Assembly: GCA_016197005.1 (NCBI GenBank)
Contig: JACPWO010000002.1
Coordinates: 146,178-210,177, forward strand
Direction of reading: 5' to 3'
DNA length: 64,000 nucleotides
Origin: Candidatus Anderseniibacteriota bacterium
Lineage (GTDB): Bacteria; Patescibacteriota; Andersenbacteria; UBA10190
Position numbers and translations under genes: made by a program. The notes under the pieces are model-generated. The model searched no databases. It worked only from the letters and a program-made list of their open reading frames with translations, and was not told the DNA's origin. Position 1 is the stretch's first letter. Each line of letters begins with the position of its first letter. Positions 4,860-57,923 of this stretch are shown one piece after another.

Positions 4860-4956
4860 GGGGACGTAGCTCAGTGGGAGAGCGTCAGAGTATTGCTCGT
4901 CTCGCGAGGGGCAATTACAACTCTGAAGGTCGAAGGTTCAAGTCCTTCCGTCTCCA
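4860..4956 (+). tRNA. tRNA-like gene with Ala-type acceptor stem and 25-nt expanded anticodon arm; anticodon undetermined
   Basis: Acceptor GGGGACG/CGTCTCC+A, D arm GCTC/GAGC, anticodon stem TCAGA/TCTGA, variable AGGTC, T arm GAAGG-TTCAAGT-CCTTC; 32 nt between the anticodon-stem strands. Confidence 0.8.
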
Positions 4957-55913: not shown

Positions 55914-56711
55914 ATGGAATTTACAAAGGAACTTAAGAAGTTAGGTTTGAAGGACAAAGAAGCGGCTGTGTATTTGGGTTGCTTAGAGCTAGGTTCAGCT
56001 ACCGCCCAGCAAATTAGCAGGAAAGCTCATGTAGTGCGAGCTACTACGTATGTAGAACTAGAATCTTTGATGCAAATGGGATTAGTGACAAAGTTCAAGC
56101 AAGGAAAGAAAACACTTTTTTCAGCAGAGCCACCACGACAGCTTACTCGACTTCTTGAGAAGCAAGAAGAAAGTATAAAAGAAAAGAAGGAAGGGCTAAA
56201 TCATCTGTTGCCAGAACTCCAGATACTTATGAAAACTGGAGGGGGTAAGCCATCAGTTCGTTATTTCGAAGGTAAGGAGGGATTGCATGCAATACGACAA
56301 GAAATTGTTATGCACACGCAACCGGGGCATACAGTTTATAATTTTACGCCCATTGATTACTTGAATGCAGTATTTCCAGAAAATGAAACCGTGTATTACA
56401 AACAACGATCGGCAAAAGGAATAAAGGCAAAAACCATTTTTACTACGAAGTCACCTACTGTTCGGGATAGAGTGTTTGCAGAGCTATATCAGCAACAAAC
56501 AGAAAAACGCTTCGTTAAGCCTGAAGATTTTCCGAGTACGAGCGGAATGACTATTTATGAAGATAGGATCGCGATAGGGTCGTTTACGGGTGACCTAATG
56601 GGGGTTGTCATAGAAAGTGAGCAGATGACAGATATGATGGTGCGACTCTTTGAGTTAGCGTGGATTACTGCGTTTACAGAAAAAGACTATAGAAAGAAGG
56701 TAAAAGGTTGA
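55914..56711 (+). CDS. TrmB-family transcriptional regulator
   Basis: LKKLGL.DKEA.VYL..LELG, HTH RATTY..L..L...GLV, VRYFEGKEG, C-terminal effector domain. Confidence 0.88.
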   Translation: MEFTKELKKLGLKDKEAAVYLGCLELGSATAQQISRKAHVVRATTYVELESLMQMGLVTKFKQGKKTLFSAEPPRQLTRLLEKQEESIKEKKEGLNHLLPELQILMKTGGGKPSVRYFEGKEGLHAIRQEIVMHTQPGHTVYNFTPIDYLNAVFPENETVYYKQRSAKGIKAKTIFTTKSPTVRDRVFAELYQQQTEKRFVKPEDFPSTSGMTIYEDRIAIGSFTGDLMGVVIESEQMTDMMVRLFELAWITAFTEKDYRKKVKG

Positions 56712-56735
56712 CTTTTATCTTTCTCTTTTCATAAT
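56708..56735 (+). promoter_or_regulatory. Sigma70-type promoter overlapping the TrmB stop codon
   Basis: TTGACT-16 nt-CATAAT. Confidence 0.65.
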
Positions 56736-56811
56736 AGAAGCAGCTGAGGTGCGTTGCCTTAGCAGTGTCATGGATGGTCACCGCATCCTCTTACCTCGAA
56801 GGAGGTGTTCT

Positions 56812-56835
56812 ATGGGTGGTTACCCAATGGACTAA
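56812..56835 (+). CDS. Candidate 7-aa mini-ORF MGGYPMD
   Basis: GGAGGT at 56801-56806, 5 nt before ATG. Confidence 0.35.
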   Translation: MGGYPMD

Positions 56836-57205
56836 CGAGGATGGAGCGACCAAGAGAGTAGCGCCAGAAAGGCTCTCGACATGCATAGGAAAAGGTTGAG
56901 TCTGGCGTTAGTACGGCCGGCACTTGGTTTCTGAGCTTCAATTCAGATACTAAGTTTCAAGCCCGGCTATGAAACGAAACGGTTCTTTGCAACCGAGAAT
57001 ATAAATGGAAGGTCGTGCAATGTTGACAGGCCTTGTCGATATTGCCTCCGTCCGGACCCATCCCCCGATCCCACCTGATACCAATCGCCATTAGTGCGAA
57101 TCATGGGTCGTGGTGGATGGGTCTTCGTACACTTGAGTTACTGTCAAGTTTGCAGAAGGGCGTCCACCTCTGAACATGGATTCCTTTTAGCGCAAACTTG
57201 TCAGG

Positions 57206-57246
57206 GCCCGGTTCTTCTTTCGAGAAGTCCCGGGCTTCTTTCTTTT
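57206..57246 (+). terminator. Intrinsic terminator
   Basis: GCCCGG..CTTCT-TTCG-AGAAG..CCGGGC followed by TTCTTTCTTTT. Confidence 0.75.
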
Positions 57247-57247
57247 A

Positions 57248-57276
57248 TTGACACCCAAATATACCGGCGGTACAGT
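57248..57276 (+). promoter_or_regulatory. Sigma70-type promoter
   Basis: TTGACA-17 nt-TACAGT. Confidence 0.75.
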
Positions 57277-57282
57277 TAAATG

Positions 57283-57411
57283 TTCCTTCGCCTATATCAT
57301 CCCGCTTTCGACGCACCTAGATTGAGGTTAGCCCCTCCTATACCTCAGGTGGGTGTCGTTCGAAAGGGGGGTAATGTAGACGAAACTAAACTCCGCAGTG
57401 CGGAGTTTTTT
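57283..57411 (+). ncRNA. Candidate rod-shaped small RNA
   Basis: Long interrupted hairpin 57287-57384 plus terminator AAACTCCGC/GCGGAGTTT-TTT. Confidence 0.65.
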
Positions 57412-57425
57412 GGTAGGATGATTCT

Positions 57426-57923
57426 ATGATTAAGCTTGTTGTTGGACTGGGAAATCCAGGCGCGAAATTTGAACGAACCCGACACAATATCGGAGTTCGG
57501 GTAGTAGAAGCTTGGGCGAAGGGTCCGGGCGCATCTATGCGCACACTGTATCTCCTTCCGGCAGACTTTATGAATAATTCCGGAAAGGTAGTAGCGGCGG
57601 CAATGAAAAAACATCAAGTGAAAATGGAAGAGCTTTTACTTGTGCACGATGATTTAGAAACATCATTTGGAGAAGTACGAATAAAAGAAATAGGAAGTGC
57701 TAAGGGCCACAATGGCGTGCGATCAATTCACGAAATGCTTGGCACGCAAGAAATCCGTCGTCTCATGGTAGGAGTAAGTCGCCCGCCGGCAGAAATTCCT
57801 GCCGATAGATATGTTCTATCTAAATTTAATTCTGAAGAAGAAACACTCCTTGCGGAAAAAGTTATTCCAGAAGCTGTCCAAAAAATTCAAATTATTCTTA
57901 CTCCGCGTCCGCTCCCAGAATAA
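57426..57923 (+). CDS. pth: Peptidyl-tRNA hydrolase
   Basis: VGLGNPG, TRHNIG, FMNNSG, VHDDL, GHNGVRS. Confidence 0.94.
   Translation: MIKLVVGLGNPGAKFERTRHNIGVRVVEAWAKGPGASMRTLYLLPADFMNNSGKVVAAAMKKHQVKMEELLLVHDDLETSFGEVRIKEIGSAKGHNGVRSIHEMLGTQEIRRLMVGVSRPPAEIPADRYVLSKFNSEEETLLAEKVIPEAVQKIQIILTPRPLPE

Follow-up and report, generated by a model that had tools for sequence, protein, structure and literature searches.

RNA1, a predicted structured transcript of 505 nt on the forward strand at positions 56741-57246 of the window (the whole 64,000-nt stretch of DNA analysed here), is better read as a message for a tiny peptide, extended by a long structured tail, and less well as a non-coding RNA. 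Sequence comparison argues for this reading, since the orthologous units vary in length and in fold and have kept a minigene together with CsrA-type sites. The locus is flanked by a TrmB-family gene on its 5' side and by pth on its 3' side, in the 1.04-Mb genome of an ultra-small groundwater bacterium, Ca. Andersenbacteria. The compared sequences show the minigene itself, its link with the regulator across Patescibacteria, a bias in the encoded peptides at the amino-acid level, and CsrA-type motifs confined to the CsrA-rich lineage. Regulator and minigene form a pair that recurs across the phylum, and RNA1 is a long version of it in Andersenbacteria.

RNA1 has recognisable limits at both ends. 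A predicted sigma-70-type promoter (56708-56735, +; TTGACT-16-CATAAT, 10/12 of the consensus) overlaps the stop codon of the regulator gene, and a similar promoter recurs before the RNA1 unit in many orthologues. The 3' end coincides with an intrinsic-terminator-like hairpin and U-tract (57205-57248, +), recognised from the sequence and from pair probabilities. The minimum free energy of RNA1 is -210.7 kcal/mol, as compared to -162.9 ± 6.6 kcal/mol for 100 dinucleotide shuffles (z = -7.26), and the part located 3' of the minigene reaches z = -6.98 when folded alone. The reverse strand attains only -177.6 kcal/mol, the sense strand being 33 kcal/mol better, and the locus ranks in the top four for folding stability among 157 gaps scanned on both strands. 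Two more gaps of the same genome (C3:560309-560898 and C3:431131-432212) are as stably folded as the RNA1 locus. Rfam gives no family at gathering score over RNA1 and no large RNA family at E-values up to 10, OLE, GOLLD, ROOL, raiA, 6S, and introns included, while the RNase P RNA and tmRNA of the same genome are located elsewhere. The initial annotation had described a strongly structured RNA of ~500 nt in which no hallmarks of RNase P, tmRNA, or introns were seen, and had named an Rfam scan and dinucleotide shuffles as checks; both have been run, and this description holds, the unit being strand-specific and bounded by promoter and terminator-like elements. Transcription of RNA1 is a prediction, as the sequencing runs listed include no RNA run carrying the locus. 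Four DNA runs, which may be the source, display no variants there, and in a fifth, coverage is limited to the terminator end and the neighbouring RNA2.

The predicted fold is composed of one three-way junction followed by a chain of long hairpins. The junction (56784-56843, +; pair probabilities 0.98-1.0) distributes the Shine-Dalgarno (SD) sequence and the start codon over its two hairpins, one in each, and the orthologous units of genomes G002, G003, and G006 also have a predicted enclosing helix, of another sequence. All helix arms listed in the initial annotation are in place and complementary, and 11 of the 13 helices form with probabilities of 0.81-1.0, whereas GAGAG/CTCTC and TGTC/GACA have a probability of 0.00. 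Neither the large enclosing multiway junction nor the 10-bp pseudoknot is supported, because the 10-bp helix concerned (56859-56910, +; arms 56859-68/56901-10; pair probability 0.98) forms in the prediction as an ordinary nested hairpin, and the stem that it should cross is the GAGAG/CTCTC stem just mentioned. In a crude energy sum, the knotted form amounts to -47.9 kcal/mol before any pseudoknot penalty, and the nested form to -43.6 kcal/mol. Such a penalty is usually 7-10 kcal/mol, and with it the knotted form would be some 3-6 kcal/mol worse than the nested one by this crude sum, and is not favoured. On the 5' side of the proposed knot, the two helices abut with no unpaired base in between. 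The pattern of the 10-bp helix was also searched in viral contigs, where its four matches are all unrelated palindromes.

Nucleotide searches do not retrieve relatives of RNA1: only one of 61 genomes was matched, with no homologue, a search of 41 genomes at E-values up to 1 returned only short chance matches, a phage search found no homologue, and the 3' 350 nt match none of the 316 loci compared. Orthologous loci were recovered by alignment-based scans, single-protein locus scans having given nothing. Synteny then reveals a promoter-to-terminator unit behind the orthologous regulator in nearly every genome. The set of 39 units, the ends of which are partly hand-set, comes from 39 distinct loci, after L108 was dropped (its SD and AUG being unclear), one locus was swapped for a pth-side one, and one was added. 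In L108, a tRNA-like sequence is found about 70-150 nt 3' of the regulator stop, before a unit with an SD whose start codon runs straight into a stop. The 39 units range from 227 to 569 nt. The sense strand folds better than the antisense in 38 of them, and z is below -2 in 25 of the 29 shorter ones. Their predicted folds differ, however, and RNA1 aligns with none of the other 38. Within six close pairs of relatives, 56 of 98 changed base pairs still pair (null 42.5 ± 2.9), with 20 double-sided changes against 6.1 in the null. Given these kept pairs in folds that are otherwise unlike, pairing is selected in these units, but a fixed architecture is not.

These results weigh on the proposal, made in the initial annotation, that RNA1 may represent a new large ncRNA class, the multiway junctions and pseudoknot of which would be its fixed architecture. 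RNA1 resembles RNase P, tmRNA, OLE, GOLLD, ROOL, raiA, and group I/II introns in size and folding strength, and the z-score, the strand-specific fold, the promoter and terminator, the lack of an Rfam match, and the top-ranked stability of the gap would all suit such a class. It differs from them in having no covariance-model match and an architecture that is not conserved even within one family: lengths vary, folds are unrelated, the crossing stem is not predicted, and no homologue was found, in the genome, phage, and locus searches above, for the lineage-specific 3' domain of long hairpins (56845-57204, +). What stands of the proposal is a stand-alone, strand-specific unit belonging to no Rfam family; a fixed 500-nt architecture is not supported by the comparison, and we consider a class of this kind very unlikely. 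Two weaker features recur in the units. BoxA-like words occur in 20 of the 39 units, against 9.4 (maximum 17) in shuffled sequences, and NusB is encoded in 5/5 genomes, a weak lead. A TGA-N15-19-TCA repeat lies over the promoter in 8/24 RNA1 against 2/35 RNA2 promoters, an equally weak lead to an operator.

The conserved core of the orthologous units is an SD, an AUG, 2-10 codons, and a stop. In RNA1, the SD AGGAGGUG (56800-56807, +) precedes the minigene Met-Gly-Gly-Tyr-Pro-Met-Asp-stop (MGGYPMD; 56812-56835, +), identified by translation and by the conservation of a short frame in orthologues. This ribosome-binding site and seven-codon frame were missed in the initial annotation. By a fixed rule, a frame of at most 5 codons follows the SD in 28 of the 39 units, against 36/197 for the other AUGs of the same RNAs, and a frame of at most 10 codons in 32 of the 39, against 68/197; kin are not independent in these counts, nor in those of peptides and CsrA sites below. 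A stricter SD rule retains a minigene in 29 of the 39 loci. Among hand-picked starts, the frame has exactly 3 codons in 26/40, all three stop codons are used, and glycine occupies position 2 in 20. The SD and AUG are predicted to be paired in the units, inside the three-way junction in the case of RNA1, and the stop is often in a loop. An overlapping frame (Met-x-Trp) starting at an upstream AUG was considered as the selected frame and rejected, as its lengths are near random and close pairs display synonymous changes in the short frame. A possible weak second ribosome-binding site followed by a 24-codon proline-rich frame (57010-57094, +; frame 57020-57094) is tentative and not conserved; several orthologues also have second SD-led frames, of unrelated sequence. 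Tandem copies of the SD-minigene unit are observed in L074 (G025), L087 (G007), L092 (G010), and L175 (G037).

The genes of this genome appear to be mostly leaderless, since 211/931 long genes have a -10-like box located 6-7 nt ahead of the start codon and just 29/931 have GGAGG at start distance, and it is for this reason that an SD-led minigene stands out. The tail of the 16S rRNA retains the anti-SD. Small, membrane, pilin-like, and bS21 genes are over-represented among the few SD-led genes genome-wide, and some of the SDs are immediately preceded by a boxA-like word.

The constant neighbour of the minigene RNA is the regulator, encoded at 55914-56711 (+). This 265-residue TrmBL2-like protein harbors a winged helix, a long helix, and a phospholipase-D-like (PLD-like) C-terminal domain, and its closest homologues are labelled Ca. 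Andersenbacteria. It belongs to the Pfam family TrmB, and a profile comparison aligns its positions 8-242 with TrmBL2 (E = 6e-8). The predicted model (pLDDT 92.9) has TrmBL2 as best Foldseek match (E = 7e-15), followed by TrmB and by proteins with a PLD fold. Domain order and fold are the same as in archaeal TrmBL2 and TrmB (PDB ID: 5BPD, 3QPH), at ~18% identity. The TrmBL2 of solved structure has been described as a protein of chromatin, devoid of the sugar-binding part (PMC4158304). In an out-of-sample comparison with a sister family, five of the six genomes have the minigene unit behind the regulator, where pth is not part of the locus; the unit travels with the upstream regulator and not with pth. 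Beyond orthologues, SD-led frames not exceeding 10 codons lie within 700 nt 3' of the gene in 48 of 102 non-orthologous TrmB-like loci of Patescibacteria (some Andersenbacteria paralogues among them), as compared to 5.2 in shuffles, 43/931 for all genes of this genome, and 9/98 on the upstream side; these minigenes are split between the same (22) and the opposite strand (27), and the rule finds no minigene behind the remaining 54 of the 102 homologues. A second TrmB-like gene of the same genome (C1:120115-120928) is followed by a promoter and a structured leader, with no minigene by the rule.

At the level of the peptides, the 54 phylum minigene frames contain 79 glycines among 194 residues, against 34 expected from base composition. 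All four glycine codons are in use, and GG occupies codon positions 1-2 79 times against four times for positions 3-1. Tryptophan is the last residue in 15 frames, and longer frames of 13-15 codons carry the same Gly-Gly..Trp ending. Where minigenes occur in tandem, the copies end in an identical residue at 8 of 11 downstream loci (two of which are nearly identical) and at 3/3 upstream loci, and they differ by synonymous and stop-codon changes. The upstream cases are L241, L243, and L284, where tandem minigenes precede the regulator and again share the last residue. The peptides are biased at the amino-acid level and rich in glycine. A tree of the regulators was built from 88 rows, five of which received their labels by hand; one of its clades retains an aromatic peptide end with a Trp-to-Phe exchange, and the 55 non-orthologue rows require 29 last-residue changes, against 36.9 when shuffled. 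This tree signal does not amount to coevolution, because kin share labels. The 33 Andersenbacteria orthologue rows give 23 changes against 22.9 when shuffled, and hence no tree signal; the last residue differs there even between regulators 81-89% alike. The alignment columns of the regulator that covary with the peptide end show no preference for the C-terminal domain, where mutual information averages 0.157 as compared to 0.159 for the helix. Within the Andersenbacteria clade, the peptide code therefore looks loose for a ligand. The Gly/Trp bias could also reflect harmless translation and not a ligand, because glycine and tryptophan tRNAs are the slowest to be depleted or trapped as peptidyl-tRNA upon loss of Pth in E. 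coli (PMC10192219).

A predicted single-stranded CsrA-type site, CAUGGAUG, is located at 56768-56776 (+; unpaired probability 0.98). The motif CAnGGA(U/A)G, which we take to be a CsrA site from the GGA rule (PMC7366521, PMC6546359) and from the consensus of such sites, occurs 23 times in 20 of the 39 units, against 1.9 ± 1.4 in shuffled sequences and 2 on the reverse strand. Gaps and coding DNA generally have no AnGGA excess, and 43 minigene RNAs of other lineages contain 2 motifs for 1.3 expected. Of the 41 genomes examined in the order, 38 encode CsrA, but only 17 of 201 do so in the phylum, and the motifs are confined to this CsrA-rich lineage. One genome, G017, has neither a CsrA match nor an RNA unit behind the regulator. 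The sole CsrA match of the present genome (C3:115789-116115) consists of two divergent CsrA domains in one frame, with the RNA-binding arginine motif in both. A GTDB-wide search for the SD-minigene-CsrA pattern gave eight matches outside Patescibacteria, read as chance.

RNA1 shares several traits with the sponge RNAs CsrB, CsrC, RsmY, and RsmZ and with CsrA-target leaders, namely its own promoter and terminator and AnGGA motifs, some of them looped; recognition by CsrA follows a GGA rule (PMC7366521, PMC6546359). As in sponge hosts, CsrA is encoded and FliW was not found, in this case in 5/5 genomes tested. This leaves room for a decoy, in which RNA1 itself, through its strong SD and its CsrA sites, would titrate CsrA and/or RNA2 and free the small class of SD-led genes; the frame would be short and Gly/Trp-rich just for harmless ribosome passage, and the regulator would set the RNA level. 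A CsrA antagonist is indeed wanted in the absence of FliW from the five genomes, the motif is enriched 12-fold in the units, with no such enrichment across gaps or coding DNA at large, SD-led genes form a minority, an RNA2 with a CCCCUCC loop adjoins RNA1, and the long structured body is under pairing selection. The count of sites is nonetheless target-like: over the 39 units, GGA totals 365 for 282 expected, RNA1 itself having 10 for 9.8 expected, and 41 of the 118 non-SD AnGGA are predicted unpaired. CsrB and CsrC carry 11-22 CsrA sites (PMC7366521, PMC6546359), against about one high-affinity site plus the SD in RNA1, which also differs by its conserved frame, predicted to be translated, and by matching no Csr/Rsm family of Rfam. 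With an excess of only ~2 GGA per RNA, RNA1 looks like a target of CsrA and not like a sponge. Furthermore, minigene units exist in lineages devoid of the motif and mostly of CsrA, and titration leaves the shared last residues of tandem frames unexplained. The decoy is therefore somewhat unlikely.

RNA2, the other candidate for titration, is a rod hairpin (57283-57412, +) with its own promoter (57248-57276) and an invariant anti-SD-like loop, CCCCUCC, at 57332-57338. In a 32-sequence alignment, 15 of its 17 pairs display double-sided changes. RNA2 is present in 16 of 150 phylum genomes and adjoins pth in several Patescibacteria families; its model matches none of 5 sister-family genomes, in a search that had no positive control. 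An assignment to 6S was rejected, as there is no Rfam match and no central bubble, and some copies have only 55-60 nt. The usual RNA2 is absent or degenerate in L087 and L089. A further small hairpin RNA, 100-200 nt from promoter to terminator and restricted to particular lineages, separates RNA1 from RNA2 in L069, L079, L082, L086, L088, L093-L095, and L100. Cognate RNA1-RNA2 duplexes are no better than mixed ones (35 pairs, p = 0.58 and 0.74), and no coevolution between the two was found; this, together with the separation of RNA1 from pth in the sister family, also speaks against titration of RNA2. Elsewhere in the window, a 97-nt tRNA (4860-4956, +) is called by Rfam and not by ARAGORN.

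The pth gene (peptidyl-tRNA hydrolase; 57426-57923, +), 180 nt 3' of RNA1, is linked to RNA2 and not to RNA1. Its vicinity invites a comparison with the lambda bar-type and axe-txe mg2 minigenes, which likewise comprise an SD, an AUG, 2-8 codons, and a stop (PMC2490762, PMC8708949). By this account, drop-off of peptidyl-tRNA from the minigene would starve the cell of tRNA and arrest growth, and the nearby Pth would counter it, in line with a report that the shortest minigenes trap most peptidyl-tRNA and that Pth reverses this (PMC2490762). RNA1, in contrast to these toxic minigenes, is a stand-alone unit tied to a regulator, with no downstream cistron and a residue bias that does not favour drop-off, glycine and tryptophan corresponding to the slowest-trapped tRNAs of E. 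coli (PMC10192219). Moreover, pth follows RNA2 across the phylum and is missing from the sister-family locus. We regard growth arrest as the least probable of the readings, and remotely so.

The closest functional parallel is with the leaderless communication peptides (LCPs) of Firmicutes, whose SD-led 8-codon genes adjoin the gene of the regulator RopB (PMC10518010). In both systems, an ultrasmall SD-led frame adjoins a cytosolic regulator, with no signal sequence or processing site. The LCP code varies by receptor clade; for the RNA1 system, the peptide end follows the regulator tree outside the orthologue clade and not inside it. The RNA1 regulator, however, is TrmBL2-like with a PLD-like domain and does not belong to the RRNPP/TPR class; a Pfam scan of 69 regulator homologues found no TPR family. 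RNA1-type frames are mostly 3-5 codons long and Gly-rich, whereas LCPs have about 8-9 residues, aliphatic or aromatic, and the minigene lies behind its regulator (tandem or convergent), whereas the LCP gene is divergent (PMC10518010) and function in the RNA1 system is predicted.

The reading that we prefer, tentatively and at slightly less than even chances, is that RNA1 is a micropeptide message, the peptide of which is the ligand of the upstream TrmBL2-like regulator, with CsrA gating its translation. RNA1 would be transcribed from the promoter at the 3' end of the regulator gene. Its occluded SD would be opened by the ribosome, with the 30S subunit and CsrA competing there, and the minigene would be translated into a peptide made without leader. 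This peptide, likely among the shortest known to partner a regulator, may bind the PLD-like domain. The regulator would thereby tell transcription of SD-led translation, or of neighbour density, in a mostly leaderless cell, while the long hairpin tail would mainly stabilise or protect RNA1. The micropeptide message leaves the 350-nt length of the tail and the kept helices of close relatives unaccounted for. A rival reading is a translation-coupled switch, in which ribosomes on the minigene would open the enclosing helix and shield RNA1 from RNase J, so that the supply of ribosomes or tRNA would determine how a functional 3' domain or second frame folds and how long it lasts. The predicted pairing of SD and AUG, the often looped stop, and the presence of RNase J in 5/5 genomes are in keeping with it, as are the block of RNase J1 by initiating ribosomes on the B. 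subtilis hbs mRNA (PMC5737220) and the action in cis of a two-codon frame in axe-txe (PMC8708949). Nevertheless, such a switch has no conserved output, the 3' part and the second frames being unrelated between genera, and in many other lineages a hairpin directly follows the stop, which makes it unlikely.

No paper on RNA1 or on the regulator-minigene unit was found, in a search that reached few subscription papers. To our knowledge, few regulatory circuits are known in Patescibacteria, and no ligand is known for the TrmB-like regulators that abound there. What is new here is a 500-nt RNA tied to a regulator-minigene system, with its controls, its CsrA layer, and the negative result on the pseudoknot. 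Strong folding in such gaps need not indicate a fixed RNA class. The locus may account for the anti-SD tail that the 16S rRNA has kept in a mostly leaderless genome, and it offers a first handle on the role of CsrA in a lineage that yielded no FliW in the five genomes tested. A broader and more speculative proposal, which we judge possible and less probable than the micropeptide message itself, is that peptide sensing outside RRNPP extends across the phylum: TrmBL2-like regulators would read peptides of 2-10 residues, made directly from adjacent SD-led minigenes. No shorter dedicated gene products would be known, and Andersenbacteria would have wired this message to CsrA and enlarged it to a folded RNA of 500 nt. 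If true, three-codon genes under selection at the amino-acid level would lower the size limit of a gene, and such genes are invisible to annotation.
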